Assembly (NCBI GenBank): GCA_951406725.2
Contig: OX597825.1
Coordinates: forward strand, 86,614,001-86,678,000
Origin: Octopus vulgaris
Taxonomy: Eukaryota
Direction of reading: 5' to 3'
Length of the DNA: 64,000 nucleotides
Shown: one piece after another, positions 7,626 through 64,000 of the stretch
How the letters are laid out: each line of letters begins with the position of its first letter
How positions within the stretch are numbered: the first letter of the stretch is position 1
The notes under the pieces: generated by a model
Told to the model about the DNA's origin: nothing
Databases searched by the model: none
The model's input: the letters and a program-made list of their open reading frames with translations, nothing else
Program-made: the position numbers and the translations under genes

Positions 7626-7667
<42 letters not shown>

Positions 7668-8164
7668 GATGGTCACTGCCTGGAATCGAACTTGGAATCT
7701 TGGGGTTAGTAGCCCACGCTCTTAACCACAACACCATATGCCTGTGGGCATAATGGTTAAGAGCATGGGCTAGTAACCTCAAGATTCTGAGTTCGATTCC
7801 AGGCAGTGACCTGAATAATAATAATTATAATAACATCGGAAAATACGTTTTACATTATTTACATCTGACGGATATTTAGCCTCATCTTGTTTGCTTTTAA
7901 CACAACGTTTCGGCTGATATACCTTCCAGCCTTCTTCAGGTGTCTTGGAGTTTTCTTCAGGTGTCTTCAGGCTGGAGGGTATATCAGCCGAAACGTTGTG
8001 TTAAAAGCAAACAAGATGAGGCTAAATATCTGTTAAATGTAAATAATGTACATAATTCCTCATCTCTTAAATATAGAACTATAAAATCTCCTTTATTTGT
8101 AAAACAGGAAATAAATACTCATTCAACGTTTGCCAGCATAGAAAAACAAACCTGTACATATCCA

Positions 8165-16507: not shown

Positions 16508-18954
16508 CTTTTAAAACAATTTTGTTGGTGTTAACCCCTAGAGAACATGTGTGACTAACAACTAAACGATTGCAATTTTGACCTAGATTCAATTTTTTTT
16601 TTATCCAACAAGACCACACATGCTCTCTGAGTGTTTAGATATCATTCAATATCATGGAAATATCATCTGTTGGTGTAGATTGTCATCACACTGGGAAAAT
16701 TACAAAATATTCCATAGCTTGTATAAATTAAAAAACCACACACACACACACTTCTTTAAAATTCAAGAAATTAACTGGGCGGCCTCTGCAACTGTGTTGG
16801 ATATTTGTATAGACCTGGTGGACTTCTTCCTTGATTACCTCGTTATGAAGTTTTCATATTTTTATAAATTTCTTGTAAACTGTTGATAATTCATTTATGT
16901 TTAACTAAATTTGTTTTCTTTGTCTCTTTGCAGTCCAGAAAATGCCCCTTCAAAGTTCTGGAAAGGAGCATTGGATACAGGCAAATGTGGGCTCTTTGAT
17001 GCTACAAAGACAGTTGCGTTCATTGAACCCAAGACCAGCCCCATTGAGTTACCAAGAACTTCTCTATCAAGAAAGGGTAACCAACTTCAGTTCTAAAAAT
17101 CTACTCTCAATTTCTACCTTCTGCCCTTCCTGTTTTTCTTAAACTTAGCACTTGCATATTGTAATAGTAAGGTATTGATAGTGTATTACAACTGTAAAAT
17201 AGACTAAACTATGTATTACAACAGTATGGCCATATGTTGTTTCAAACATAATCACTGCAGAAATAAATCTCACTTTTCTAGGAGGATATCTACCAATCAC
17301 ACAACGGTGAGGAATGTTGGTGTTTAGCAATAATAAATTAGTTTGATATTGAAAAATAGAAAATTGATCTAAAGGAACGATCTTTTATGGTATGGCATCA
17401 AAGATAATGTAATTAATTAGATATCAAATGAACGATGGATTTTAATCCTGTTTATAAGCTGTAGTACACTTAATATTACTGACCTGGAAAGTGTGTGACT
17501 AATGACCTTTAATGTACAGTATTCAGTTATGAATAAGTGGCTTAGATAAGATTAATTAGCCTGGCCTGATGATGAATTGAACTTGAAAAGAGATGGTTGG
17601 TTGTTTAATTAAAACTATTGCTTAAGCAAGACTCTAAATTTTCATCTGTTGAAGGGTTATTTAATGAAATTGCATTGGAGTCTGGATGTCGGAGAAAGTA
17701 ATATATGTTGTTGAATCATACAAACTAAAACATCCTGCTTAAAGAGAAGTTAACCTCCTGCTGCTGCTGCTGCTTTGATGAGCTGTAGAAACTAATTTAT
17801 TTATTTTTTATTTCATCTAGTTTCAGCTCACGAGCTGTGGCCATGCTGGGGCGCCCTTGAAATTTCTAAAATTTATTCCTTTACACATTTAATTAGATTA
17901 AATTATGAATTCTAACCTTCATATTTATCTGTGTTAATATTATAATTCATTATTTAGGCGGCAAGCTAGCAGAATCATTCGTACCTCAGGCAAAATACCC
18001 TACAGCAGCATTTTACCCATCTTTACATTCGGATTTCAAATGCCACCAGGGTTGACTTTGCCTTTCATCCTTTCACGGTTGATGAAATATGTATCACTTG
18101 AGCACTGGGGTAGATCTAATCAACCTTAGCCTCTCCCCCAAAATTGCTGGCCTTATGCCAAAATTCGAAGCCTTTATGGTAATTCATTATTTAAAATAGA
18201 AACCTGGTGGCACGTAAAAAGCACCATCCGAACGTGATCGATGCCAGGCCCACCTGACTGGCTCCCCCGTGCTGGTGGCATGTAAAAAGCACCCACTACA
18301 CTCTGAGTGGTTGACGTTAGGAAGGGCATCCAGCTGTAGAAACATTGCCAGGTCAGATTGGAGCCCGGTGCAGCCTACGGGCTCTCCAGACCTCAGTTAA
18401 ACCGTCCAACCCATGCCAGCATGGAAAACGGACGTTAAACGATGATGATGAATTAAAAACCATGTTATAATTCATTATACATCTAAAATACACCCACACT
18501 CACACAGTGCTGTTACTTGTTTATTTTTTTTTGTTTTAGCATGACTTTGTAGCATGTGCAATAGTTTTAGGTGTCCATGCGGTCACAAGCTGACATGGAC
18601 AATCTCTTGGCCATACAATACTTTGAGTGTAACATCCAGGATGTAACACGCAGAGGAGGAAAGAGAGCAGAAAAGAGCTGGTATTTAAGTTATTGAGGTT
18701 AAGTGGATGGAAGTTAGTTAGCCTAGGTGGGATTTGAACTGAGCAGAGAACTGCAATAAATGTCACGAAGCATCTTATTTGATACTTTAAGGATTCCATC
18801 TGTTTGCTGTCTCACTGAGACACATGCAGGTACACACACATACGCACACACCAATACATGTGCACATGTGTGTGTGTGTGTCTGTATATATATATATATA
18901 TATATATATCATCATCATCATCATCATTTAGCGTCCGTTCTCCATGCTAGCATG

Positions 18955-18988
<34 letters not shown>

Positions 18989-19445
18989 AGTATGTTTATC
19001 ATCAAGGTGGCGAGCTGGCAGAATCGTTAGCACACCGGGCGAAATGTGTAACCGTATTTCGTATGCTGTTACGTTCTGAGTTCAAATTCTGCCGAGGTCA
19101 ACTTTGCCTTTCATCCTTTCGGGGTCGATAAATTAAGTACCAGTTACGCACTGGGGTCGATGTAATCGACTTGATCCGTTTGTCTGTCCTTGTTTGTCCC
19201 CTTTATGTTTAGCCCCTTGTGGTCAATAAAGAAATATATATACAAGTATGTGTATCATCATTGTCATCATCGTTTGACGTCCATCTTCCATATATACACG
19301 TCTGCATGTATATATAAATGTGTGTCTCAGTGAGACAGGAAACAGATTGAATCCTTAAAGTATCAAATAAGATGCCTTGTGACTTTTATTGCAGTTCTCT
19401 GCTGATTTCAAATCCCACCTCGGCTAACTAACTTCCGTCCACTTA

Positions 19446-19497
<52 letters not shown>

Positions 19498-31194: not shown

Positions 31195-34100
31195 TTACTG
31201 GTTTATATTATTGCCAATAATCATTCACTGCTTGCATAGAAATGAGACTTGAAGTTCTATGTCTCAAAATTTTGGCAAATGCTAGCTTTTTGGCTTGGAC
31301 AAAGATTAACACACCTCATTAATGGGTCAATCTTTCTAATCCACATTCTTTAATCTTCATTTTTCTTCACCTAATTGTTTTTTTACCTATTAATCTTCTT
31401 AAACATCTCAATTTTACCTTTTCTTTCTTTTGGCATAATTTCTTGTAAATTTCTTTCCTCTTCAGCATGTCTTCAATATCCCTTCTCACCTTACAATTCC
31501 ATTTCAGTTGTCGAAAACAATAGAATAGTCTTGGATTTCTTAAAAATTAAGATGACATAAAAAAATGTAAAAAAGTAAAACCAGAGAATTGAAGTCTTAC
31601 AATAAGGACAGTGCTTCACCATTGCCTTTGCCATGCTGGTTAAACTAAAGAACCAAATATTCTCTGTGAACTCAAATTGAAATTCACTTCTATTTGCAAA
31701 ATCATTCCTACCAATTCCTTCACACAATTTTGCTGTGAATTGACAAACAAATCTAGAAAAATTGATTTGTTTTAATTATTTAAATTTAATTTCTTTTATT
31801 AAAGAAAGCTTCTCTAATATTTTTCACATTTAAAAGTTGGGTAAAAATAAAAGGAAAATCAATATTTTGGAATGAGAAACCAATTGTCAAATTTATATTG
31901 ATGAGAATAATGGTTTGAATATCAATAGAGTGTGGGTATTGTTGTGGGATTATTGTGGGCTGATAAAACCCCCAAAAGTAGTGCTAGTGTTGTGTAGTAA
32001 GCATGTGTGTGTACCTTAGTATCCTTGTGTTTTCTATTTCAGGAAACTCCCCCCCGGGAGCCTAAATCTGAAGGAAAGAAGCAAGCAAAAGTCAAACCTA
32101 TGTCTGCTCATGATGAGAAAATGATTAACAATGCCATAGCTTTAGCAAACGAGTTTGCCATGCAGTGCAATAAAATGAACATGGACGATGACCAACTGAG
32201 TCCAAAATCTGAAACCAGTTCAGACTCTCCAAAGCTCATCCAAAAATTGAAGATATCTATGAAGCGGAGTCCTAAACAGGAGCGCAAAAAGACATTCACT
32301 GAAGAGATTGCAATGAAAGCCGACCTCGATGATGATCTTCCACCAGAGTCTCAAGAAGCTTACAATATACTTGTAATGAAAGGTGCAGGGAAAGAGAGCT
32401 CTCCCTCATCTCCAGCTGTAGAATCTCTCTCACAAGAACTAACTATTAATACTGAATTATCTCCAAACAAAGCAGAACCAGAATCCAGCTCATTTTCCTC
32501 TACTGCTACCCTTCCCACTGCTACAATTACAAGAAAAGACTCAGACATAAAGCCACTGAGCAAATCCCGGGCAGCTATGTCTAAAATTGAGCCACCACCT
32601 ATACCGAAACCACGTCCAGAACACAGAGTAGAGCCTACCCCTCGCATCGAGTCAATTACAAAGCCAGAAGTAACCAAACCGGAATTGCCTCCCAAACCAG
32701 ATATTGTTCCACAAATAGACCAACCAAAAGAAGCGCCGCCTCTTCCTGAAACTCCCCCTAGGACTGATCATTTGTCAAGAAGTGAACCGAAATTCGACTA
32801 CCCTATTAAAACTGAATCTTCCATCAAGTCAGAGTCTCAAAGTAAACCAGAGATTGCAGTTAAACCAGAGATTTTGCCCAAAACAGACTTACCGAAAATG
32901 GAAAGCAAAATTGAATATCCTCTGAAATCTGAGCACCCTTCCCGTATCCCCCACCCCAGCAAAATTCCCCCTCCAACTAAGATTGAGTATTCTTTTAGAA
33001 AAGAGTCTCCACCTAGATTAGAACGATCCGAATCTCAACAACGGTCGGAACCATTACCCAGAATGGATGTCCCTCCACCACCACCCCCTACTGCTATTCC
33101 TAAAGCAGAACCTGTTGTTGAGAGAGCACACAGTGTTGATAGAGAGAACGGACATCATTCTTTGAGTCTTGACTCGTTTTCCTTTAGTAAAGAGTCTTCT
33201 CCAGCATCCAGTTCTGAGAGATCTGTTGAGGATCGGGATTTGGAGACAGAATCAAGAGATAAGCTAGGTGGAGGTTATGATAGGAGATCTGATAGCCACT
33301 CAGAAAGATTTGGCATTTCATCACCTAAGATGAGTTTCGATGAAGAATTCGCAGAACCTTCACCAAGAGAAATTATGAGTAAGTTAGCTCGAGAGAGCCG
33401 AATTCGGCGTTCAATGGATCACCAACGAGCTATGTCCACTGAGAGTATGGATCACTCTCATATCCGGAATTTAAGGGAACCACAAGGAATTCCAACTAAA
33501 GTTGTTCCAACTGCAAATGGTGAAGATGAAGAAGTTGATACAAACCCTTTACGAATGCTGCGTGGCGGTGCCATTCCTATTCGAGGAGGGCGTGGACAAG
33601 GTATGAAACCCCCATCTCTTCCGTTGCCTAGGTTACAGTTTACTAGTCCAACTGTTGTTGTTACTTGTACTGCTACCTCTACTACTACTTCTACAACAAC
33701 AATTTCTCAGCATGCAGCCATCAGTTTGTCTCGGGGCTACAAAAGTGACATCATTGATTCAATGCCTCCTCATCTCGTGCCACGACGCACGCCTGTGGTT
33801 CCGCCCCGCACCTACAGCAGTTCTAGTGAAAGCATGCCTGCTCTAGATAAATGTTTCCCACCACAGTTGCCACCGCGTAAGCCGTTGAGGCCAGATGAGC
33901 TGCTCAACGCCAAGCCACGGGCCAGGAAGTACCCCCTATTGCGCCATAGCGACTCTTCTTACTCCAGAGTTTCCACTTCTGTATCCGTCCACTCTTCTGC
34001 CTCTTGCTCTGCTGCAACCACTGTGATGACCACTACTACCACTACCACCACCGCCACCACTACCTCTCCAGCCAAACCCCGGCCCCTCTTTATTAACTGT

Positions 34101-35547
34101 TTGCATGATATTCCTTCTCTCCCACCGGCTCCACCCCCGCCAATAGACTTTGATGAGAACGATGCTGATGATGATGACGACGACGACAATGTGTTTGTTC
34201 CTTGCCAAACGGACTACTGCCCCATGCCGACAACGGCCCCACCTCCTCCCCCTCCTCCTCCTCCACCATCGCCACATCCATTTCCAACGTCACCAGCATT
34301 GTCGTCATCAGCTTCACCAACACCACCAACCTCCCTATCTCCTCCCATTTCAACTCATTCCCTAGTCCCACCCCTTCATGACTCTTCTTCTAGAGAGGCG
34401 TCTAGCATGATTTCAGGACAGTCTGGGTGTTCCACTTTCCCACGTAGGAGGTACCGTTTACAAGTGGTACAGTATAATTTAGAACAGTTGGGATTCTATA
34501 ACCATCAAGACCCATTTTGGTGTAAAACTGGGAATGTTTCGAGGTGGAAATACTCTGATAATGAAAGTTCCGAAGATCTCTCCCCAATGTCTGCCAACTA
34601 CAAGACCTCCGACAGTGTCAGCTATGAAGATCTGCTCGAATTTGCTTTAGATAGGTAAACAAGAGAATCTTTGGTTTTGGAAGATTTTTTTTCTTTTAAT
34701 CAGTTTCTCACTTCTTCCAGTCTTTTCTAATTGTTAATGATTCTGTTAAAAACGACAACAAAAAAAAGCACAAGTTATAATTATTTTGTTATGCTTGTTA
34801 GGGAAAAGTATTAAAAAGTTCTTTGGTTCTCACATCTTTATGTTTCAATTTAAGAACAAGGTTTATATTAAAACACAAGTTTATTTAACGTTTCCATTGC
34901 TTTGGAGATCTTTAAACCTTTTGGGTTTAGTGATTTTTAACAGAGAAACTGAACGTAGAATTTCAAATTGTTTGCACACACACACTAGTTATGTTTGTGT
35001 ATGTATATATATGTGTGTGTGTGTGCACAGACACACACACATATTAACTAATATATGTATAGATATGTGTGTGTATGTATGTATATATATGTATGTGATA
35101 TATGTATATATCTACATATATCTATATATATGAGTAAATGTAATGATAAGCAAGTTAGGCAAGTCAGTATACAAAGAATATTTAATACATTTAAAAGAAA
35201 AAATGTATATTTGGTTAGATACAAAAAAGTCCAAGTTACACAGAATAGAAATGATATGATGAATTAAAGGGGTTAGAATTACAGAAAAGTGTTACAAATC
35301 CAATTTAATTCAACCCCTTTAATTCTTGATATCATTTCTGTTCTGTGTAAGTCAGACCTGTTTGTATCTGTAACCAAATATACATTTTTTTCTATTAACG
35401 GTATTCAATATTTTTTGTATATCAACTTTCCTGTCCCTGCATTTACTTCTCTACCCACTCAAGTTTAAATCTCTTGAGCACTACTGAGTGTATTCTATAC
35501 GGAGAATATCCGATTCTCGTCTATGAACTATTTATAGGTAAATATAC

Positions 35548-49567: not shown

Positions 49568-52500
49568 CTTTTTTTTACTTGTTTCATCATATATATATCG
49601 CTGCAACTATTTTTGTAAGCCGTACTTATTCTATCGGTCTTCGAACCGCTAATAAGGAATAAACCCCAGCATGGTTGTCAGCAATGCTAGGGACAGACAC
49701 AGACACACAACACACATGCATATATATATATATAATACACGGCTTCTTTCAGTTCCGTCTACATCCCTCACAAGGCTTTGTGCGGCTAAAGAAGACACCA
49801 GCCCAAGTGCACGAGTGGACTGACCGCTTGGTTGAAAGTCTACCACAGCCACTCCTGCGCCTATATATGTAAGAGACACACACACTTATGTATTCTAACA
49901 GCCTCGTCATATTTAGTGACAATTATAGTCTTCTCTCTTGATAACACATTGTCTATTCCTATCGATATTAATTAATTAATTATGTGTTTGTGTGTCTGTG
50001 ATCGTCCCCCACCTCCAACATCGCTTGACAATCGATGCTGGTGTGTTTACATCCCCGTAACTTAGTGGTTCGGCAAAAGAGACCGATAGAATAAGTACTA
50101 GGCTTACAAAGAATGAGTCCTGGGGGTCGGTGTCTTCGACTAAAGGCGGTGCTCCAGCATGGCCACAGTCAAATGACTGAAACAAGTAAAAGAGTAAATG
50201 ATGTATTGCAAGGGACGTAACTTTTACAACAATTTAAGTTACCTCCCTTAGTGGAATGCTGAAACAGAATTATCTGAAAGGAAAATGCCTCTTTGTGACA
50301 CTGAGCTCTCTCCTCCTCTGTTGCTCTATTGTAACACCAGATGGTATGTAACATTATAGAAATTAGTTTCCATAGCACGAGAAACATTTGTTTCGGTGGG
50401 AGTTGGGTAATGTTAAATTTTGGCTGAAATACGATCTGTGTCCTAGTTTTACAAAGTTAATATATATTTTGTTATTTGTATATATAACAATCTATTTAGC
50501 CTAATAGGATTTGGGTGAGGGCATAAATGGCCACCTGCCTTGCTGTGTGCATTTGAGCATGGATATTTAATGCAACATGTTTAATGTAGTGTATCTATGG
50601 ATGGCACATGGTTTAGTGGTTAGGATGTTGGTTTCATGGTTGTAAGGTGGTAGGTTTGATCTCAGGACCAAGGCACTTAATTGCTCCTCTGCAACCAAGT
50701 CCCAGCCAAGGGCTGATGGCGCTGTCTTTCGCTCTGCGCTTGCTTTTATGTTCTGCTAATCAACAGGGTCAGTGCTGAGAGGCTGTGTTGTCTGCTTTTG
50801 AGTGCAGAAGCATCTATAAAAGATAACGAAAGGGTGAAAGTGTGGGTTTTACTGCCAGGTCATACTTGCTTGCAGGTGATGGCTAGGTTTAAGCTTTTTA
50901 ATGGATGATGAGTGGTGTGTCTGCAGGTGGACATGTGGTGCAAAGTAATTTAGTGGGTCTATGCGAACAGGTGCAGTTTACTGTGTGTCTATATGTGAAC
51001 TCCTACGCTTAATGTGTATGTATATGGATATATACAGTTAATGTAGTGTGTCTGTATATGTGAACATACACAGTTTACAGCTAAACATATTAAGTTTTCC
51101 ACTCAAAGTTTTTAGTGTGAAGGGAGAGGCTGCTCACTTGTATACCGTCCAAAAGTGACGAGGTGGACTTGTAGCGTTTCTCACTGGTTCTAGAACCAGA
51201 AAGTAGGATAGTCTGCTAAAATACTTTAGATTTTTAGTTTAGTGATCAGAATTCATATTCTGCTGGAGTCAGCATCTCTGAGATTAATAAATTAATTAAT
51301 TTTAAGAATGTGGGATGTTAATTAATTAACATATTATTAACATATTCTATTTCTGGTTTTGTATCAATTACCTTTTAGACAAAAATGAATGTTCTACTTA
51401 AAGAAGCATATAATAAATATTAATCACTGTGTGTGTAATAGTTAAAAACATAACTTTGGTAATTCATAGTTGAGCCATTTCATTTTGAGAATTATCCAAT
51501 CTGATATTTTCTGTCAGTTGTAATTATTGATTTTAAGTTTTAGTAGCAGAATGGTTTGGTATGTCTCTGGATCTCTCCAAATATTAGGGGTGTTTAAGGC
51601 AGTGCAAGCTGGACAAAATGCTTAAGAGCATTTCATCTGTCTTTATGTTGTCAGTTCAAATTCTGCCAAGGGCAGCTTTGCCTTTCATCTTTTTGGGGTC
51701 AATGAAATAAGAACTAGTTCAGTGCTGGGGTTGATGTAATCGACTTGCCCTGTCATCATCATCATCATCGTTTAACATCCACTTTCCATGCTGGCATGGG
51801 TTGGATGGTTTGACTGAGGCCTGGCATGCTAAGAGGTCGCTTGACTCAAGCACAGCATATTGCCTGACTGGTTATGTGACACTGACATCGGGCACGGCTA
51901 AGATATCACTTGACCTGATGGGTCTTCTCAAGCACAGCATATCTCCAGAGGTCTCGGTTGCTTGTCATTGCTTCTGTGAGGCCCATCGTTCGAAGGTCGT
52001 GCTTCACCACCTCATTCCACATCTTCCTGGGTTTACCTCTTCTACAGGTTCCTTCCATTGTTAGGGTGTAACACTTCTTCACACAACTGTCCTCATCCAT
52101 ACGTAACACATGACCATACCAGTGCAGCCGTCTCTCTTGCACACCACATCTGATGCTTCTTATGTCCAACTTTTCTCTCAGGGCACTCACACTCTGTCGT
52201 GTATGCACACTGACATTACACATCCAGTGGAGCATACTAGCTTCATTCCTTGCAAGCCTACACATGTCCTCAGCACTCAACCCATGTATCGCTGCCATGT
52301 AGCATGGCTGTTTGCACACAGGCCTCATCACCCACCCAAAATTGCTGTCCTTGTGCCAGAATTTGAAACCAATATTATTTTGAACTTATCATTTCAGTAT
52401 AGCTGATGTGATTAGAAATTATTTCAAGTTGGTAAAACCTTTTTCTAGTGTTGGTGAAAGTGGATTATTTCCATAGTAATTCATTTGGGGAGAATGTTGT

Positions 52501-55108: not shown

Positions 55109-57627
55109 ATATGTATATATATATACAATGCACTGTTCCATGATAGAAAATTCAACAAAAAAAGTACTCCATCTGGTGAGAGTTAAATATTAGCTTTATA
55201 TGTTGAGAAATATCTCCAAACATATCCTTAACATATGAAACTGTTAGTAACACTTGGACACATGTATTGTGTCCTGTGAATAAATATGAATATACATATG
55301 CATAGGTAGATATGCAGACACACATGCATGCATGTGCACATATTTGCAAGTCCATGCATGTATATGCATATCTACATTTCCCGTGTGTATATAATGGAGT
55401 TGAGATTATTTTGTTAGCAGTGTGAGTGTTATGAGTCTTGCTTCTCACTCAACTGCATTCTCTGCTCTGCGACACTTTGGTAGGAACAAAGAATTCTCTC
55501 GGACGTACCATAAAGAAAGAATCCCTCTCTGTCAGGGGGTCCTTTCTTATGTCTGAATACACATACGAATTCTGTATTCACCATCTCTTCACATAGAAAG
55601 TTAATGTACAAAACTGTAGAAATATTTTTTGTAAATAATCAATAAGAATGTAGGGATCCATTCAGAGTTTAGTTAGAAACCTGTAAGATGAAATTCATGT
55701 TTGAGAAAAGCTATTATTTTTTTTATAACAAAATCTGATATGAAAGCTGTAAATATGTGGTTTACATTTCCAAGTGTTATCACAACTGAAACAAAATTAA
55801 AACTTGTATTTTTAATTAAGACTTGTATTGTTAATTAAGACTTGTATTGTTAAACAGTCAACAATGCTGACAGATGTTTTGTTTAGAAAATATCTTAACA
55901 AGGATCCTTTTTTACCTTTCAGGAAGAAGAACTCCGAGGAAATAGAGGCTTTACGTAAATTATTTTGTAATGAGGTGCGTATTTTTGGTGTTGGGAAATA
56001 ATTTTGTTGGCAAGTTTAACTTTTAATATTGTTGTTATGGAAATGACAGAAATGTTTTGTTTTTTTAAAGTTGTTGGTTTCAACCTGACTGAGGTTGGAT
56101 TTATTTCTTGTATTTTCCAAGGCTAATAAAATATGCAACAATGAATTAGTAACTTAATTAAATATTTTTGATATAATTAGGGGTAGTGATTAAAATAGCT
56201 TTGCTTTAATTCTGAGTTTAATTAAATCAATTTTTTTGTAGTTAGCAGATATGATTAAGCTTACGTAATTAGTGGGCTTCATTAAATTGACCCAATTCTC
56301 TGCAGATTTGTGGCTTTGTACTGCAGCCAGGGAGGTGGAATGGAAAAAGAATGTCTGATAAAATCATCATCATCATTGTTTAACGTCTGTTTTCCATGCT
56401 GGTATGGGTCGGACAGTTTGACAAGAGTTAGCAAGAGACGGAAGACTGTGCCAGGTCCTGTTCTTCTGCTCTGGCCTGGTTTGTACAACTGGATGCCATA
56501 CACCAACCACTTTATACTGCCTAATACCAACCTCTTTACAGAGTGTATTGAGAGCCTTTTTTATGTGGCACCAGCCTTGTGATATTTGTTGGAATTCTTT
56601 ACATGCTGAGTTCAAATCCTGTCAAACTCCACTTTACTCTTCATCCGTTTGGGTCAATAAAATAAAACCCAAATATTTCTGTTCTATTTTCAAACTGGAC
56701 AGATCTGCCCTTTCACAGCAACCCTGCAATGTCGTCCTAAAGATAAACAATCACATCATGGAAATCCCAAAGCTACAAAATGATACATAATCAATTCCAA
56801 ACAATTTGAAAGAGTGAATCTGGGATGAGAAAGCGTTAAAAACCATTGGTTCAATTCTCACCAGGGTTCACCCAAGGCATTTGACTGTGCTCTTCACATA
56901 TTTGTATCATTGTTTTATTCTGTAAAGGCTTATCTGGGAAACTGACAGTTATTGCCATGTGTATAATACAGGTCTACTCCTAACAGGCTGTTGGTGGGTG
57001 ATACAAGAGTTCTTTGAATTTCCAACTCATCCCCTCCATGCTGTTAAGGAAAATCAATGTAAACAAGACCTGTGATTTCACATCAAAGCAAGGAAAAAAA
57101 AATGGATGTTAAATGATGTCATGACTCAGCATTCCTTAGTTTAGGTCTGTTTTGGTCATGCATTTCGATGTTTGGTATGGCTTCCACTGCAGCCGGGTGA
57201 CTTATTTGCTTTAAAGTCCAGCTCATTAGCAGTCACCCATTTATAATGAAGTAAATATAATACAAAACTTCCCCAGTTGGTCATTTTTAATTTGTCCTTC
57301 ATTTGTTAACAAACTGTCCAACTAATGCCAATGCGGTGAATTAGAAGTAAAGTGATGTTGGTTGCCCCTGAAATATGTTGCCATGTAAACGTTGTTGTTG
57401 TTGTTTTGTAGGTTTCTGAGGTCGATTGCCGGCAAGCCCTGGAAGAGACCAAATGGAACATACAGAGTGCCATAAAGTATATCAAGTTAAAGCAGCTGAT
57501 AAGTACTGGCTTGGCTGATGTGAATCGCTGCAAAGAGGCTCTGTTGAAATGCAACTGGGATGTAGAGCAAGCTGCTGACCATCTCCTTGTTCATCCAAAA
57601 GACAGCCCAGAATGTGTGGACGTCTAA
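5825..57627 (+). CDS. Ack-like: ACK-family non-receptor tyrosine kinase (PR2/Ack-like, TNK2-related), 5'-partial; join(5825..6016,8637..8734,12334..12460,14440..14589,14720..14826,16934..17076,21364..21522,22299..22455,25109..25232,25809..26030,32043..34654,55923..55974,57412..57627)
   Basis: All 13 exons have AG/GT boundaries with matching phases (4359 nt, 1452 aa + stop). Motifs: [54 protein letters not shown]3-like segment, CRIB ([15 protein letters not shown]), C-terminal UBA-like helices. The kinase-SH3-CRIB-...-UBA order is diagnostic of the ACK family. Confidence 0.93.
6315..6630 (+). mobile_element. tRNA-derived CORE-like SINE family B (others ~1250-1420, 6960-7140, 39840-39990, 45160-45830, 49570-49862(-), 49985-50197)
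   Basis: GTTCAGTCCCACTGCATGGCACCTTGGGCAAGTG...CCTTGTGAGTGGATTTGGTAG and 3' CAGCATGGCCACAGTC..TGACTGAAACAAGTAAAAGA repeated across the window. Confidence 0.8.
7533..7578 (-). ncRNA. Minimal type I hammerhead ribozyme motif, copy 1
   Basis: Minus strand reads GACAC-CUGAUGA-A-GGCUG(gagggtatat)CAGCC-GAA-ACAU-U-GUGUU: stem I, conserved core, 5-bp stem II, GAAA; stem III palindrome altered by a CpG transition. Confidence 0.8.
7899..7944 (-). ncRNA. Minimal type I hammerhead ribozyme motif, copy 2
   Basis: Minus strand reads GACAC-CUGAAGA-A-GGCUG(gaaggtatat)CAGCC-GAA-ACGU-U-GUGUU; palindromic stem III ACGU; GUU cleavage triplet. Confidence 0.85.
8637..8734 (+). CDS. Ack-like: Kinase exon: [33 protein letters not shown] (DFG and activation loop)
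   Basis: ctccag|GTAAAG ... GCTTG|gtgagt; 98 nt. Confidence 0.96.
9885..10062. mobile_element. piggyBac-like MITE (family also at ~4366-4600, 13012-13547, ~56660-56840)
   Basis: Termini CCTTTAGCATT ... AATGCTAAAGGG-TTAA; shared internal CTCACACCTACCCTACAATGTCATT. Confidence 0.7.
12334..12460 (+). CDS. Ack-like: Kinase exon: [42 protein letters not shown]
   Basis: ttacag|GTGTGCT ... CAACAG|gtaggt; 127 nt. Confidence 0.96.
13012..13547. mobile_element. piggyBac-like MITE interrupted by an RTE-tail SINE (~13055-13345)
   Basis: TTAA-CCTTTTAGCATT ... AATGCTGAAGAG-TTAA; internal insertion ending ...GGACGTTATATGATGTGATGAT. Confidence 0.7.
14440..14589 (+). CDS. Ack-like: Kinase exon (subdomains X-XI): [50 protein letters not shown]
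   Basis: cctaaag|ATCCTT ... CCAAAG|gtaagt; 150 nt; CW...RPTF motif. Confidence 0.95.
14720..14826 (+). CDS. Ack-like: SH3 exon 1: [35 protein letters not shown]
   Basis: ttgtag|ATGCGC ... AAGAA|gtaagt; 107 nt; follows a 130-nt intron. Confidence 0.9.
16447..16504. repeat. Compound (TC)n(TA)n microsatellite
   Basis: Direct reading. Confidence 0.95.
16934..17076 (+). CDS. Ack-like: SH3 exon 2: [47 protein letters not shown]
   Basis: ttgcag|TCCAGAA ... AAGG|gtaacc; 143 nt; FWKG...GLF SH3 signature. Confidence 0.9.
18204..18450 (+). mobile_element. RTE-tail SINE family C (others ~1500-1683, 3825-4035(-), 9560-9861, 15170-15290, 24855-24995(-), 36730-36870(-), 56365-56575(-))
   Basis: GAGTGGTTGGCGTTAGGAAGGGCATCCAGC...CCAACCCATGCCAGCATGGAAAACGGACGTTAAACGATGATGATG; same 3' end as the RTE LINE at 51753. 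Confidence 0.85.
18698..19447. repeat. Inverted repeat with ~128-bp arms (18698-18825 and 19321-19447)
   Basis: GTTAAGTGGATGGAAGTTAGTTAGCC...CTGAGACACA is the reverse complement of TGTGTCTCAG...GGCTAACTAACTTCCGTCCACTTAAC, with few mismatches. Confidence 0.9.
19005..19235 (+). mobile_element. tRNA-derived SINE family A, best-preserved copy (others ~3130-3335, 17956-18175, 27320-27710(-), 28405-29075, 30931-31145, 44320-44590, 46680-46885(-), 51598-52375, 59218-59510, 61255-61600)
   Basis: A-box-like TGGCAGAATCGTTAG, B-box GAGTTCAAATTC, shared central GCCTTTCATCCTTTCGGGGTCGATAAATTAAGTACCAG. Confidence 0.85.
19449..19494. repeat. (TG)n microsatellite (one of many TG/CA, TA, ATT and CAT tracts)
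   Basis: Direct reading. Confidence 0.95.
21364..21522 (+). CDS. Ack-like: CRIB (Cdc42-binding) exon: [53 protein letters not shown]
   Basis: ttcctag|AATCC ... CCAG|gttagt (alternative same-phase donor at 21492); ISxP-x-D-x-RHxGHxG CRIB consensus. Confidence 0.92.
21660..21862. repeat. Interspersed repeat family (also ~15378-15535, ~40330-40502)
   Basis: Shared TTTAAyCyCAGGTCAGC..TGATCAAGCAGACCTAT ... GGAGATTTGGCTGCTATTTCTAGC ... ACATAGAGG. Confidence 0.6.
22299..22455 (+). CDS. Ack-like: Linker exon: [53 protein letters not shown]
   Basis: ttggcag|GTAAA ... ACATG|gttagt; phases match both neighbours; CpG-rich relative to introns. Confidence 0.85.
22510..22780 (+). mobile_element. Degenerate non-LTR (RTE-like) reverse transcriptase fragment
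   Basis: [23 protein letters not shown]...FVDLKK...RVP matches the QxGF..GRST...FVDLEKAFDRV RT motifs, with a stop and frameshifts. Confidence 0.7.
25109..25232 (+). CDS. Ack-like: Exon: [41 protein letters not shown]
   Basis: gcttcag|GTCTAGT ... CTAACT|gtaagt; 124 nt, phase 2/0. Confidence 0.87.
25809..26030 (+). CDS. Ack-like: Exon: [21 protein letters not shown]...PLIPPHVP
   Basis: ttttag|ACTTCA ... GTTCCT|gtaagt; 222 nt, phase 0/0. Confidence 0.9.
29862..30147 (+). mobile_element. 5'-truncated RTE-type LINE 3' end
   Basis: ORF tail [20 protein letters not shown]...[13 protein letters not shown]; 3' (CAAGT)2 tail; 13-bp TSD CATTACTATATTC at 29849-29861 and 30148-30160. Confidence 0.85.
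31144..31194. repeat. (ATT)n microsatellite at a SINE tail
   Basis: Direct reading. Confidence 0.95.
32043..34654 (+). CDS. Ack-like: Large 2612-nt exon encoding a Pro/Ser-rich disordered region with PxxPxR/K motifs
   Basis: tttcag|GAAACT; 870 open codons; ends GATAG|gtaaac (phase 2, matching the exon at 55923). Confidence 0.9.
35132..35448. repeat. Long imperfect palindrome with ~140-bp arms and a ~26-nt loop
   Basis: GAATTAAAGGGGTTAGAATT vs AATTCAACCCCTTTAATTC; TTACACAGAATAGAAATGATAT vs ATATCATTTCTGTTCTGTGTAA; AAAAAATGTATATTTGGTTA vs TAACCAAATATACATTTTTT. Confidence 0.85.
45315..45600 (-). mobile_element. tRNA-derived SINE nested in a family B SINE
   Basis: Minus strand starts GTGTGGCTTAGTGGTTACG...TGTGTCCTTGAGCAAGACACTTTAC; family B resumes at ~45605. 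Confidence 0.65.
51753..52330 (-). mobile_element. RTE-type LINE 3' fragment with (GAT)n tail, nested in a SINE
   Basis: ORF ...[20 protein letters not shown]...[12 protein letters not shown]... is the typical RTE ORF2 C-terminus; host SINE halves at ~51598-51752 and ~52331-52375. Confidence 0.85.
54874..55051 (+). mobile_element. ~180-bp element inside a (TA)n tract with a degenerate hammerhead-like motif at 54937-54972
   Basis: (TA)n on both sides; CUUU-CUGUGGA-A-GAGC(GUAG)GGUC-GAA-ACGU-A-AAA. Confidence 0.55.
55795..55851. repeat. 19-bp tandem repeat x3 (AATTAAGACTTGTATTGTT)
   Basis: Two identical units and one with two mismatches. Confidence 0.9.
55923..55974 (+). CDS. Ack-like: 52-nt exon: (R)[17 protein letters not shown], start of the UBA-like region
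   Basis: cctttcag|GAAGAAG ... AATGAG|gtgcgt; bridges the phase-2 donor at 34654 to the phase-0 last exon. Confidence 0.85.
57412..57627 (+). CDS. Ack-like: Last coding exon, UBA-like: [71 protein letters not shown]
   Basis: ttgtag|GTTTCT ... GTCTAA; CxxAL...W+++A pattern typical of the ACK C-terminal UBA. Confidence 0.93.
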   Translation, partial: VSEVDCRQALEETKWNIQSAIKYIKLKQLISTGLADVNRCKEALLKCNWDVEQAADHLLVHPKDSPECVDV

Positions 57628-57857
57628 ACTCTCACACCTTCAATATATTCTCAAAATGTTAAAAACCAAACAAATGCAACAAGAGAAATCTCATAAACAC
57701 TAACTTAACGAATCCTGTGACTTTGCTACACAAATGAACAAAAACAAAAACAAAAAAACATCTGACTTTTATTTTATTTTCTTTTTCTGCAGACATTTTA
57801 TATTGGAATTTCTGCTTCCATTCTTTGCACCCTTCTGTAATAATTTTTCCTTTTGAG

Positions 57858-57898
<41 letters not shown>

Positions 57899-58422
57899 TT
57901 CACTTGCAACAGGTATGTTTTGCATTGCAGTTAAACCACCACAGTCCTTGTAGCTTCTCCCCCCCCCCCTCTTCGATATTCTCTGGCTGCCTCAGCCAGA
58001 AGACATCCTTGTAGATTGTCCCCTAAGCCTGTTGCCATCAACAATTCCAACTCCTTCAACTCAACTTGTATAATAGTGCAAAAACCCTGAAACTACCAAA
58101 TTTCAAATATCGCAAGTAATGCTTTGTCTTTGTGATTTTCTTTCTTTCTTTCTTTACAACATTTTCAGAAAGTGTTACTCTGCATGCAAGCAAATATCAA
58201 AGAAGTAGAGGAATGGGTGGAAAGGATGCGTGTGTGCATGTGTGCGTGCGTGTGCGTGCGTGTGTGTATGTGTGTGTGTGTGCTTCTGTGTGAGAGTCAA
58301 AACTTTTCACTGCACAAATCTAGCAATTTTAAAGAATTACAGTGAAGAAGAAGCAAAATATCTTTGGTTATTCTTTGTAATATAATTGTGTGTGTGTATA
58401 CATGCTTACATATGCATGTGTT

Positions 58423-58462
<40 letters not shown>

Positions 58463-59543
58463 TGTATATAAATGTGTGTGTATATATGTGTGTATATACA
58501 TACATGATTATACACACACACTTATAAATTCATATATATATATATATATAGACTGCTCCCTTTTAAATTGAGTCATTAATGATATCCGCCAGCTTTTTTT
58601 CTGTTTAAAAAAAAAAGATACAAACATTTCTGTTTGGATTTTCAAGGCATGAAATGTAGAAGAATTGTGACTAAAACTGTATATCTCTGGCACCATTCTG
58701 ACACCCACCCGCTTCTACATATTGCGTGTGGGTGCATTACAGAGCATTATGTGAGTTTGGTTCCTGTGATGGTTTTTCCCTTGGTCGACTATTATGGTTA
58801 GAATTGTCTTCAGTCAATTTATTCTGTCGACCTCAGCTCCTGAACTTGTTCTCTGTTCTGTCAACTCTTTCCGTTCCTTATTTCCATCAATATTCTTTGA
58901 GTTCTCTATGAAATTGTTGTAAATATTTCTTCATCTTTGATTCTTCTGTCTTGGAACTTCCAAACTGTCTGCTGCCTATTCTTGTCGTTTCTTTGGACAC
59001 TCCACTGTCATGTGTCAGTATGACTAATGGTTAACTGTTGTTATGTTATATTTGTTCTTGGTTCGTTAATCTTTTATCAGTTGAATGATTATGAGTTAAC
59101 CCTACATAACTCTTCAACATTGTTAATTAGTGTAAATTATCAATTAAGTCCTGGCCTTGATTACTTGACTCTCCCCTCACTCTCACAACCACCTGCCTGG
59201 CCCTGTGCCTATGGTACTGGACTGGCAGAGTTGTTAGAGATGAAATGCTTTCTGCTATTTATCCTGGCATTTCACATTTAGAGTTCCAATCTTGTTGAGG
59301 TCACCTTTGCTTTTCATTCTTTAGGGGGCAATAGAATAAATATATTGGTTGAGTACTAAGTGTCAGTATGTCTCCTCTCCTTAGGTAACTGACTGTGGAC
59401 CTAATTTAGAGACCAATAGGATAAAAGTTGTTCAATTGGTAGAATCAGTGGAGCATCAAACACTATACTTTGTGCCACTTCTTTCAGCACTTCTGAGTTT
59501 GAATTCTGCCCAAGAAAGCAAAGGTTTGAACATAGTGTTGTGA

Positions 59544-59861
59544 AAAAAATAAAATGTTTTGAATGGTACAACAATACATTTATAACACAAACAATGGCCT
59601 ATAATAAACTGTTGTAATTTAACCATCCATAACCTGATATGATATTTCGGAATACAAATTCACTGCTAGTGACTCCATCAATTCCTAGGGATATCTGAGG
59701 AAGGAATTTGTATTCCGAAATATCATATCAGACTATGGATGACTAAATTACAACAGTTTATTATAGGCCATTGTTTGTGTTATAAATGCATTGTTGTACC
59801 ATTCAAAACATTTTATTCTTTACAAACAAAACACAATGCTTCAAGCAAACTACAATACTCT
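59544..59861 (+). mobile_element. Fold-back (inverted pLTR-like) non-coding insertion carrying a hammerhead motif
   Basis: ~114-bp near-perfect inverted arms 59548-59661 and 59704-59817; ~44-nt unique 3' tail; TSD CA(T/C)AGTGTTGTGA at 59531-59543 and 59862-59874. Confidence 0.85.
59690..59729 (+). ncRNA. Minimal type I hammerhead ribozyme, motif-intact
   Basis: GAUAU-CUGAGGA-A-GGAAU(UUGU)AUUCC-GAA-AUAU-C-AUAUC: perfect 5-bp stems I and II, complete core, palindromic stem III, AUC triplet (predicted cut after 59724). Confidence 0.85.
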
Positions 59862-61440
59862 CACAGTGTTGTGACTTTTGCTTTCCAGCATTTTAGGTTT
59901 CATAAAATATAGTAACTGCTGAGGATGATTCAATTAACTCCTCCACATTTCTTTGTTCTTAAATTAAAGGCAGTAATTAAATATGCTAATATATAATAAT
60001 TAATGACAGTGCTTTAATGCTAATATATGATAATGACAGAGCTGGTGCTGTAACGTGGCAGTCGGTTTTGAATGAACGACTCGGTTATAGTCTTTGTTGG
60101 AACTATTTAAAATGGTTAATCGCACAAACATTGCAACATCCGCAGCCACTTGGAATTTGGCAATTCTCGTCTCCCCTTATTTTATGTCTAGTAATAATAA
60201 TAATAATAATAATAATGATAATTTCTTTATTTACAACTATGGGTTTGCAAAAAAACCCAAAAAAACCATTGGGGATTGTACAGGACAATACAGTGTCGGG
60301 TTACACAAATAGAAGCGTGTAATAATGATAATCTTAATAATAATGATAATGATAATCTTAATAATAGTGGTGGTATTAGATGTTAGTGTTTTTGCTGATC
60401 TGTTAGTGATGTTTGTGTTATTTGTCGATGCTCCTTGACCATTCTCTCTACAGAAGGGTCCAAACCTTCTACAAACTCGGCTGCTGCTGCTTCTCTCCGT
60501 CTTCATCGATGATGTTGTCTCAGTTGATTCTGAGAGAAGAAAAGTAGAATGGGCGCCATTTTTGCAACTAATTTGAAAATATAGGATTAATTCTTAGGAC
60601 TCCATTAAAAAGGGTTTCTTTTTAAGTCTTAAAAAAATACCCAACTTAATTTATTAACAAAAAGGTTTTCATTATATTTTTATAATTTCCCTGTCATTTC
60701 TAGCTTTTTTTGAAGACCTTGAAACAATTTAACAAATCTTACTCTTGAGTTCTCTCCCTTCCATTGGTGATCTCCCCATTTTCTCTGTAAAATAAAGTTA
60801 AGATCTTTGATTAGTCACCTCTTCCATAACAAGTTAATTAACAGTGAGGGTTCCCTTATTTTTTAAATTTCATTATCCACTTAATGAAATTTTATTTTGA
60901 GGACAAAAACTGTACAATTGCGGCAAAGGCAATAACATAATTAGTCATTGAACAAAAGTAAAGGTTTTGGATGTGAAACCAAAAGTTATTCTTCTGCTGG
61001 TTTTCAGATCATTTTATTTAATGATATTTCTCGAGTTTGATTCCCAGGCCAGGCTTTGAATTTATGTCTTCATATATAATTTTTGTTATTTTCAAATGAA
61101 AAGCAACTCTATAAACATCAATCTCCAAATGATAAATATTTACTTAGAGACTCATTGACATCAAAACTCAGTTGTGCTCCCACTTTACAACTGAATTATT
61201 TATTTTGGTGATGAAACCATTTCAAGTCCAATTGTTTTTTGTTTATTCTGTTTCCAGGCAGTGGACTTGCAGAGTCTGTTGGGAATCAGACTTAATATTT
61301 CATCTGTCTCTCTTTATGTTAGGAGTTCCAATTTCACTAGTTTGACTTTGAGGTTTCTGGACTTCATAAGTTTCAGTCATGTACTTGGGTTGATGTTTTT
61401 TCTCTCGTCCAAATTAGAAAGTTTGTGCCTCTGTTAGAAG

Positions 61441-61480
<40 letters not shown>

Positions 61481-63291
61481 AATGGTGAGTTGGCATAAAA
61501 AATCGAGAGGGGTGTGTTCTTTTGCAACACAGCATTTAGTTTCGTCCTTCTAACTGCTGTGTTCAAATGCCACCCAAGTTAATGTTGCTCTTTGTCACTC
61601 GGAGATCAACAAAACAAACATTAGTTATGGGATAAGGCCAATGCAAGATGTCAATTAATTTGTGTTGTTTCTAATAAATTCTTGTTCGTTATGGCTGTTA
61701 ATTCCATCTTAATAATGTTTTGTCTTCTTTGAGTGGAATTAATGAAAGATTGCAGTCCTTATTCACTGCCGAAACAGAAAAAAAGTAGTTTTTATATCAA
61801 CACATCTTAATCATTAATATAATGATTATTTTGTTTTTCCAAAACTAACGATGGGTCCTTTTGTCGTGGAGCAGAATTCCTGCTTTCAGTTTAGTCATGG
61901 TTTGTTTATGGCAAATGGTATTGAATGTATAATTCATATTGGGTATTTTAATTAATTAGTGAGGTAAATTGAAACATGTATGCATTAGTGGATTCATTCA
62001 TGCATACACTTGCCTGTTAGCTATATATATATACATACATATATGTATATATATGCATATATATATATATATATATACATATATGTATATAGCTGCCTCT
62101 GTGTGATGATTTAACTTTAAAGTACAATTACTTCTACAATATCTGATCCGATGATGGATTTGACGTCTTGATCCAAAAGGTTGAAGAAAACAAACAAAAA
62201 GTTTAGAAACCAAACTGAGACATCTTGGAGGAGAGCCTGATATTTTTTATTCTGGATTCAGTGAGGCAAAAATGGACAGTTTTTTTTTTTTCCCCCTTTT
62301 TTTCTTTTGGTGGAACTGTCTGGAAAATACTCTTATTTATTTTATAATATTCTGTGTACAGTGTTTTGTTGTTCAACAAATGCCATCTCTTCTTTGATCC
62401 ACATTATATCCTTCTTGCTTTGTCGTTTTTGAAATCTGTTATTTAGCAGCCATGTTGGTCATCTATTTAACACTCATGTTCCAGAGGTGGCCACCACCAT
62501 CCCATCTCTCTTTTATTTATATATAATTATATATATATATTTTTTTTTAAACAATAAGTGACCAAACCTTTTTTGATTGGACCAAATAGTTTGATGTGTT
62601 TCGAGAAGTCAGAAATACCTTCAATTATACCAAATCTATATTTGCCCTCCCCCCCCCTCTCCTCATTCTTTTTTTTTTTTTTTTCTTTCATATAATCGAT
62701 CCAGCAGATGATATCTATGCATGTTCTGCTGGAGTCACAACAACAACAACAAACAATCTAAAAGAAGACATGAAAGGACAACAAGAATTGCTGCTAGATT
62801 TACCGTTCTCTGTAGAACCACCACCACCACCACCACCATTACTACTATTACATTATCCTAGCAGTGGATGCATGTCTACCCCCCCTCCACAAAAAAAGAA
62901 AAAAAAATCTAGCCTTTCATAATAATTTCTTATGATAAAAATGCTTTTTGTTTTCTTCCGAGAGAAGAGGAAAAAACCTCTGCAAGGAAAAAGACATTTC
63001 AAAAGAAGAGAATAAAACAGTTTAAACCATAAATGTTGAGTAAAATTACAAATGGGAAGGAAAAGGCTTAAAAATATGACAAAAACAACAACAAAAGACT
63101 TAAAAGACAAGCAGTTTTTTTCCATAAATAAAGAGAAAATTGATATTTATTCTTTGTTGTTCTTTTAGCTCTGTGCTCCTCCCTCCCTCCCTCCCTGTCT
63201 GTCTGTCTGTCCGTACGTATATACATACACACATACAATCTCGATCTCTCTTTTTCTCTCTCCATTCATTCATCCACATTGGCTCTTTTCT

Positions 63292-63424
63292 TCAGAAATC
63301 CAACCTTATCTCCAAGACAAACTGCTGTCTCTGGAACTGTCCAAGAACAGAGCAATCAATATACACAGTGCAGCTCCAAAAGGAAATAAGACCGAATTCT
63401 TCGAGTTCTCTCAACAGTTTGTAC
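63292..63424 (-). CDS. Probable terminal coding exon of a convergent unknown gene: YKLLRELEEFGLISFWSCTVYIDCSVLGQFQRQQFVLEIRLDF*
   Basis: Minus-strand acceptor atattacag|GTACAAA; complex non-repetitive sequence open for 43 codons to TGA, followed by UTR-like low-complexity DNA. Frame not proven: an alternative frame gives VQTVERTRRIRSYFLLELHCVY*. Confidence 0.5.
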
Positions 63425-63691
63425 CTGTAATATATTGATTGCTTTCTTACCAAGGGAAATCATGCAAGAACTCCTTATAAGACTGAAACATGCCTTCAGT
63501 TATCTCCTGTTTTTGCTGACATCAGTTGAAATTAATATTAATCATTGAGTTCCACATAGGTATTATTAATCACATTTTTGTTTTCCTTACGTTAATTAAG
63601 AAGGCATTAACTTCTGATTAACGACTGGTTTAATTTGTTGGCACAATGCTATGTTCATATATAGATTCACATATGTATTCATACCTGTATG

Positions 63692-63915
63692 CATGAGAGG
63701 GTGCTGAGAGGTTCTTGGCTTTAGGAGTATCAGGAAAGGGGCCTGGTCGGAGGCCCAACTTTCTGAGTTCTTTCACAGGGCCTAGAAAAACCGAAGGACC
63801 AGTGCAATAAGTGTGTGAATCTGAGAGTGGAGTATATTCAATGAAATCATAACGAACGGATCCTCCTGCATTTTCTTTTACCCAAAGCCAGGAACTTTTC
63901 AGCCCCCCCCTCGTG
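63692..63915 (+). mobile_element. Mariner-derived MITE
   Basis: Imperfect ~31-bp TIRs (CATGAGAGGGTGCTGAGAGGTTCTTGGCTTT / AAAGCCAGGAACTTTTCAGCCCCCCCCTCGTG); internal remnant AWSEAQLSEFF..GLEK...NKCVNLRVEYIQ* resembles a mariner transposase C-terminus. Confidence 0.8.
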
Positions 63916-64000
63916 TGTATGTATCAATCAATCAATCGCTCAATCAATCACTCAATCAATCAACATGTTTGCATATAAATACAAATCTGAACGAGTCTGC

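Follow-up and report, generated by a model that had tools for sequence, protein, structure and literature searches.

A Penelope-like scar in the likely 3' untranslated region of an octopus Ack-like kinase gene, carrying a hammerhead ribozyme predicted to be locked by its own inverted copy

Penelope-like elements (PLEs) are described as leaving insertions that are truncated at the 5' end, carry an adjacent inverted copy and end in a tail of 30-40 nt (PMC8557442, PMC11167929). Some carry minimal hammerhead ribozymes; cleavage by a single minimal PLE ribozyme is undetectable, and dimers cleave slowly (PMC4209133, PMC6765202). Self-folding repeats are major targets of hyper-editing, the Penelope of a lizard (Anolis) is heavily hyper-edited, and hyper-editing in octopus is exceptional and of the top rank (PMC5625713, PMC9989829). 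Here we consider an insertion in Octopus vulgaris (assembly GCA_951406725.2, contig OX597825.1, forward-strand positions 86,614,001 to 86,678,000); this whole stretch of 64,000 nt is called the window, and the coordinates below are positions in it. The insertion follows the stop codon of a gene for an activated Cdc42 kinase-like (Ack-like) protein and contains a hammerhead motif at 59690-59729. An earlier note, made from the sequence, took it for a recent insertion that might affect the kinase mRNA. We believe, with good confidence, that it is an old truncated PLE scar in the 3' untranslated region (UTR), the hammerhead being locked by the element's own inverted copy, and that it serves the editing enzyme ADAR as a substrate rather than cutting the RNA.

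Anatomy, age and family of the insertion

The insertion totals 344 nt, including its target site duplications (TSDs) of 13 bp, the left at 59531-59543 and the right at 59862-59874, which agree at 12 of 13 positions. The last three nucleotides of the left TSD overlap the start of an inverted, 5'-truncated copy of the pseudo-long terminal repeat (pLTR) of the element (59541-59661, minus strand). On plus-strand RNA this arm is antisense and faces the 3' half of the ribozyme; it lacks CUGANGA and is therefore not a second ribozyme. The sense 3' end of the pLTR follows (59662-59861, plus strand, 200 nt), truncated about 28 nt before the ribozyme and reaching the fixed 3' end. Its portion 59704-59824 (plus strand) is the right arm of a predicted hairpin, in which the 3' strand of stem I and most of stem II are included together with the GAAA and the scissile C; the tail of about 37 nt (59825-59861, plus strand) is present on the sense copy only. 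Each arm is 121 nt long and the two are 94% complementary. The TSD-flanked fold-back of the earlier note is thus confirmed, and the insertion has the 5' truncation, inverted 5' copy and 30-40-nt tail characteristic of PLEs.

A first look with the 200-nt sense part gave 1,820 candidates genome-wide; 40 of them were scored for identity, and among these the best other copy is 93% identical, with none above. The exact ribozyme pattern has 28 matches in the genome, against 0 for a control pattern. The fetched copies have a common fixed 3' end and variable 5' cut points. In longer ones the sequence upstream is a broken frame that has a Cys-rich linker and GIY-YIG, with the reverse transcriptase (RT) further up: GIY-YIG was found in copy L003 (E 2e-5), and copy L062 has RVT_1 (E 5.5e-13), a weak GIY-YIG and then a pLTR with the same ribozyme. 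An RT followed by a C-terminal GIY-YIG upstream of the pLTR is the arrangement of endonuclease-bearing (EN+) PLEs. Judged by these likenesses, the insertion is of PLE type, the 3' end of a decayed family with RT and C-terminal GIY-YIG. The order of RT and endonuclease together with the Cys-rich linker point to the Neptune/Nematis type; the two clades are not told apart. The best longer homologues of the frame are unnamed proteins (58% and 44% identity). No full-length autonomous copy was found among 25 loci picked by RT or in 6 widened stretches, all frames seen being broken or truncated; this bears on the activity of the PLE family and not on its origin.

The family alignment comprises 53 non-redundant loci, of which 46 are usable. 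An upstream inverted arm is present in 18 of the 46; it reaches at least 9 nt into the ribozyme in 12 (in L048 the overlap is 6 nt only). In the 16 fold-back copies the inverted arms end 33-55 nt before the 3' end and their identity is 84-96%, with 100% in none. A TSD-like match was seen by eye in 8 of these 16; an automatic TSD search across copies was confounded by TA microsatellites.

The insertion is old and truncated and dates from a past wave; it is probably fixed. We do not consider it recent because there are 7 differences between the arms over 121 sites, identity to the best other copy among those scored is 93%, no fold-back copy has identical arms, and the right junction is crossed by RNA-type contigs of four studies (runs X1, X4, X6 and X10). 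Hence only the first half of the "PLE-type" and "recent" description in the earlier note stands. Relative to the family majority, the window copy has 8 differences over 175 sites and 2 extra bases. A joint that skips the element, as in an empty allele, was absent among the listed joints in X1, X4, X6 and X17 and from X9, X10, X19 and X15. In X17, a DNA-size run about 1% divergent, contigs enter the element from both flanks by 24 and 29 nt, under the 31-letter threshold, which hints that the insertion is present in that run.

Several observations at and around the element can be added. Four of the seven arm differences fall on the dinucleotides 59732-59733 and 59742-59743, which are AC on the plus strand in both arms and give tandem A-C/C-A mismatches in the hairpin. 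Just upstream of the element, inside the inferred UTR, 59272-59326 and 59426-59483 are pieces of a presumably SINE-like dispersed repeat, of which the window has about 12 copies. Elsewhere in the genome, locus L024 (G000:C1:107429103-107432293) has two same-strand pLTR copies about 230 nt apart, a tandem that would permit a dimer, and also an upstream inverted arm. At L062:1301-2000 (within G000:C6:75823500-75831500) two head-to-tail units of about 352 nt carry canonical type-I hammerheads at 1489 and 1841, with a 6-bp stem I, no extra nucleotide and an 8-nt palindromic stem III. This tandem, unreported by Tandem Repeats Finder, looks like a non-LTR retrozyme and lies 1.6 kb from a PLE copy of the family considered here.

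The ribozyme and its antisense arm

The hammerhead motif at 59690-59729 (plus strand) is real. Both strands of the window were scanned with loose and strict descriptors, and the chance level was taken from 300 simulated windows: three sites were found, 59695 (plus), 7939 (minus) and 7573 (minus), compared with 0.017 matches per simulated window for the loose descriptor and 0 of 300 for the strict one. The motif, supported by both the scan and folding, is a minimal type-I hammerhead with all the expected parts (CUGANGA, GAAA, UH and stems I and II). On the plus strand, stem I has 5 bp (59690-94/59725-29), the core CUGAGGA occupies 59695-59701, and stem II has 5 bp (59703-07/59712-16) with the loop UUGU; then come GAAA (59717-20), the palindromic AUAU (59720-23) and the predicted cut after C59724. 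The features given for PLE-type hammerheads (PMC4209133) are present as well: the extra nucleotide A59702 before G10.1, the pair G10.1-C11.1 (G59703-C59716) and an unstable palindromic stem III. The intact core and stems I and II and the expected cut site thus agree with the earlier note. Its "perfect stems" hold for these two stems and fail for stem III, a 4-nt all-A-U palindrome that cannot close inside one molecule and whose duplex is at +1.6 kcal/mol.

That note suggested an Infernal search; with the Rfam covariance models no match to a hammerhead family came up, either in the whole window (E<=1) or in 59640-59780 (E<=10). Rfam matches to miRNA and snoRNA families were rejected as microsatellite or hairpin artefacts, far below the gathering scores. 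A non-LTR retrozyme was ruled out for this locus, considering that it has a single motif in an inverted arrangement and not head-to-tail tandem hammerhead units. Within the window, neither a same-strand dimer partner for the 59690 ribozyme nor a second copy of its family was found, and no likeness to the ribozymes at 7.5 kb was seen, in line with the assignment of the two to separate families in the earlier note. The latter ribozymes (7480-8055, in a kinase intron) are a second hammerhead family, antisense to the kinase; the minus-strand motifs at 7573 and 7939 have a 6-bp stem II and U at position 17, with inverted partial copies alongside.

The ribozyme is not expected to cut, by our models, because the 4-nt A-U stem III needs a dimer partner, of which there is none in the window, and because the left arm is predicted to pair with its 3' half. 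The left arm, transcribed first on plus-strand RNA, is complementary to 59704-59729. This stretch takes in the greater part of stem II, GAAA and the scissile C as well as the 3' strand of stem I. The energy needed to impose the ribozyme fold is 1.3 kcal/mol for the isolated 40-mer and 3.5 kcal/mol for the sense part by itself; once the left arm is included, it rises to 25.7 kcal/mol with the 3' end at 59729 and to 34.5 kcal/mol at full length. The probability of the ribozyme fold changes accordingly, from 0.13 in the isolated 40-mer to about 1e-19 to 1e-25 with the left arm. The earlier note saw the fold-back and missed this pairing of the left arm with the 3' half of the ribozyme, GAAA and scissile C included. 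Its proposed effect of self-cleavage on the mRNA is not supported, since the ribozyme fold is 25.7-34.5 kcal/mol worse than the hairpin, a dimer is needed, and the window offers no partner on the same strand. We conclude from the modelling that the ribozyme probably cannot cut in the kinase RNA; the double-stranded hairpin, rather than the ribozyme, may affect the mRNA.

The host transcript, A>G differences and competing explanations

By protein likeness the host is the octopus Ack-like gene. Kinase-domain exons lie at 5.8-14.6 kb of the window, the large exon is closest to the activated Cdc42 kinase-like protein P0012 of Octopus bimaculoides (60% of the query aligned, at 97% identity), and the last coding exon (57412-57627, plus strand), with UBA domains and the stop codon ending at 57627, corresponds to the C-terminus of P0012 in 71 of 71 residues. 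The sense orientation of the ribozyme relative to the kinase, claimed earlier, is therefore correct.

Contigs of sequencing runs were mapped over 55400-64000, X1, X4 and X6 being from three studies and X17 being the DNA-size run. Fourteen RNA-type runs contain 83-90% of the sampled words of 57400-60600. Contigs of X1, X4 and X6 run from 59736 to 63105-63140, with breaks mainly at microsatellites, and end just past AATAAA at 63127-63132 (plus strand), which is followed by a U/GU-rich tract and is the likely distal poly(A) signal; X17 continues beyond it. Repeat-free intron bins have a depth of 0-12 in X1, X4 and X6 versus 28-71 in X17. Depth was not used to rank parts of the gene, and its rise toward 63,140 was set aside. 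Since the RNA-type contigs continue beyond the element and end near 63,140, shortly downstream of an AATAAA, we consider it likely that the element lies within a 3' UTR of about 5.5 kb (57628-63150, plus strand), about 2 kb into it. The earlier note had allowed a position in the 3' UTR or just beyond, and the former is now the likely one. It also placed the first AATAAA after the stop at about 59335 and two more inside the element; the plus-strand hexamers are indeed at 59335, 59548 and 59603, of which the second and third fall in the left arm and would be base-paired once the hairpin has formed.

Three A>G differences (59782, 59784 and 59785, plus strand) fall in the perfectly paired part of the right arm, and each faces U in the hairpin. 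In the listed rows the G depth at these sites is 37.6, 9.0 and 49.9 of 73 in X1 and 20.3, 4.3 and 16 of 20.3 in X4. In X6 it is 64.2 of 64.2, on a gap-free contig (59736-60180) anchored in unique flank. In X17 it is 0 of a depth of 170.5 at all three. A 9-letter loose end in X10 fits the three sites, and that run has other A>G rows at 59822, 59825 and 59828. A>G on the plus strand fits kinase-sense RNA. It is likely that the 121-bp duplex is edited by ADAR (adenosine to inosine, A-to-I). Editing at the three sites seen would leave the sequestration of the ribozyme unchanged, as judged by folding.

The mechanism that we propose is as follows. The PLE family has a ribozyme in its pLTR, and the window copy consists, as its anatomy shows, of the last 200 nt and a tail-less inverted copy between TSDs. 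The kinase transcript would read through to a poly(A) site near 63,150. The antisense arm, made first, would pair with the 3' half of the ribozyme as it emerges and leave the active fold unpopulated; a freed motif would still need a second ribozyme for stem III. A-to-I editing of the 121-bp duplex, which we infer, would imply that the duplex forms in cells. On balance the element is probably a passenger that the gene tolerates; if the mRNA is affected at all, this would be due to the handling of double-stranded RNA (dsRNA) and not to cleavage.

A number of points weigh against this explanation, and they have to be considered together with its competitors. The runs are all contigs whose RNA nature is guessed and whose strand, ends and levels are unreadable; no contig spans the UTR or joins it to the coding exon, and X1, X4 and X6 have holes at 57409-57695 and 58557-59130 (a record filter applies, so that the holes are not counted as absence). 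The element may instead lie beyond the main kinase poly(A) site, e.g., that of AATAAA 59335, the RNA at 59.7-63.1 kb being a separate plus-strand transcript, perhaps started in the pLTR, or a minor long isoform; the second hole, at which X17 does have contigs, and the lack of a contig linking the two sides agree with it. However, X1, X4 and X6 contain 87-90% of the sampled words of 57400-60600, about a quarter of which a real gap would remove, a single 942-nt contig of X15 (58576-59517, 0 differences) crosses the 59335 hexamer, and no more than about 28 nt of pLTR is left upstream of the ribozyme in this copy; we regard this location as unlikely. The editing is exposed to a similar objection, namely that the A>G differences reflect polymorphism in the DNA or reads that stem from other copies of the family; the hairpin would then be transcribed, but its editing not shown. 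X17 is not matched to the individuals of the RNA-type runs, and the differences may be allelic. G at 59785 is the family majority (39 of 44 copies) and G at 59784 occurs in 4 of 44, which leaves only 59782 free of cross-mapping. The difference tables of X9, X10, X19 and X15 (4 of 4 runs) list none of the three sites, and the X10 contig has the family-type T at 59830, so it may be a chimera or cross-mapped. Against this, a single haplotype would hardly give the unequal fractions at three close A's in X1 and X4, the contig of X6 has no gap and is anchored in unique flank, and G at 59782 is found in 0 of 44 genomic copies and nowhere in the depth of X17. We think it unlikely that the objection is right.

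The remaining alternatives concern function. One proposal would be that, acting as a monomer, as a trans-dimer with other transcripts of the family or with the assistance of a protein, the ribozyme cuts the kinase transcript after C59724 and separates the coding part from the distal poly(A) tail in the manner of Clec2. Our folding is an equilibrium model with neither proteins nor tertiary contacts, the Anolis PLE ribozyme is protein-assisted (PMC11167929), and by that precedent a protein might refold the 59690 ribozyme. Moreover, its core and both stems are intact, which is true of only 11 of the 46 aligned copies. The ribozyme has the sense orientation and is located between the stop codon and the likely poly(A) site; loose contig ends from other loci show that further copies of the family are transcribed, and the X6 contig begins at 59736, 12 nt past the cut site. 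Nonetheless, such activity seems very unlikely to us: the penalty is +26 to +35 kcal/mol, there is no stem III besides the all-A-U palindrome and no partner in the window, and contig starts near the site are explained by repeat branching. A contig of X19, a run of unknown kind, crosses the site unchanged (59655-59733), albeit by 9 nt only. Nor is the core much better conserved than the flank: in 28 copies picked by likeness, mismatches number 13/331 in the core, 25/557 in the stems and 134/2373 in the flank, and one two-sided change was seen, at the terminal pair of stem I in 3 of 46 copies. The copies appear to decay near-neutrally, with little sign of selection on single ones. A variant with editing as a gate, in which the PLE supplies both a hammerhead and the antisense lock on it, and the lock strand is edited from A to I so heavily that the duplex loosens and permits protein-assisted or trans-dimer cleavage of the kinase 3' UTR, is hardly credible; with all 10 A's of the lock strand that face the ribozyme changed, the fold is still at +8.6 (unpaired) to +22.8 kcal/mol (G-like), and 9 A's of the ribozyme, those of the GAAA core among them, lie in the same duplex. 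Finally, the hairpin may have been co-opted as an edited dsRNA element through which the kinase mRNA is tuned in its stability, export or translation. The analogy is with pairs of inverted Alus in human UTRs, and the long duplex, the likely editing and the right junction in samples of four studies are compatible with it; but the arm identity of 94% is inside the family range of 84-96%, i.e., without a sign of selection for pairing, and fold-backs are common in the family (18 of 46 copies). We consider co-option quite unlikely, and retain the locked scar in the UTR as our explanation.

As for the neighbourhood, the earlier note placed the element between two convergent genes, and this was not borne out. 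No Pfam match was found for the six candidate open reading frames (ORFs) at 60.2-63.9 kb, on which no homologue search was made, or among the 119 ORFs scanned, out of 161 listed, in the 30 kb that follow; RNA-type contigs are unspliced through 60333-61433, with no splice at the apparent acceptor near 60535. Upstream, an open frame of 885 aa (32001-34658, plus strand) extends about 340 aa beyond the P0012 splice point and is matched by an unnamed 897-aa protein, P0013; it is possibly an alternative C-terminus of the Ack-like kinase without the UBA exon. Pairs of inverted repeats in introns at 35192-35394 (76% complementary), 18698-19447 (93%) and 7649-7833 (89%) are possible dsRNA or editing substrates. 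A 159-aa frame at 51906-52385 (minus strand) resembles by eye the C-terminal end of a LINE-type protein and has no Pfam match.

Comparison with known systems

Each ingredient of this locus is already known. We found no literature on this octopus PLE family or on an antisense-locked PLE ribozyme in a UTR; the family may be listed in supplements or in Repbase/Dfam, which were outside the search. The locus offers an example of how a PLE ribozyme can be harmless in an mRNA, since its catalytic half is predicted to be covered by the inverted copy that arose with the insertion, and it is a simple test case for the idea of a locked scar. Considering that the arm reaches at least 9 nt into the ribozyme in 12 of 46 copies, this may be a general route to tolerated PLE scars that are ADAR targets in octopus, and by analogy such scars may be likened to inverted Alus in primates. 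The locus would carry far greater weight if products of a cut at 59724 were detected, or if the kinase mRNA were shown to respond to editing; the present evidence is against cleavage.

With the EN+ PLEs of the Neptune/Nematis type, as described in PMC8557442, the family shares RT, the Cys-rich linker, the C-terminal GIY-YIG, 5' truncation, the inverted 5' copy, the 30-40-nt tail and the position of many copies beside TA microsatellites; unlike them, it has no intact or full-length copy among the fetched loci. Compared with the minimal type-I hammerheads of metazoan PLEs, stem II has 5 bp here and 7-8 bp in the Schistosoma families, and the inverted arm extends over no more than the 3' half of the ribozyme; the octopus family is not named in the corresponding part of that source (PMC4209133). 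Like the hyper-edited Harbinger of Xenopus and Penelope of Anolis (PMC5625713), the octopus element is a single insertion predicted to fold back into a long, short-looped duplex, and it is a likely ADAR target. Unlike those repeats, the octopus duplex would also bury a ribozyme, and its editing rests on three contig sites and not on matched reads. The hammerhead in the 3' UTR of mammalian Clec2 genes (PMC6765202) is likewise located between the stop codon and the poly(A) signal. However, it is discontinuous and its cleavage in vitro was demonstrated, whereas folding and cleavage within the mRNA are, by prediction (+25.7 to +34.5 kcal/mol), not expected of the octopus motif, which is transposon-borne and minimal, has no stem III and is presumably locked by its own antisense arm.

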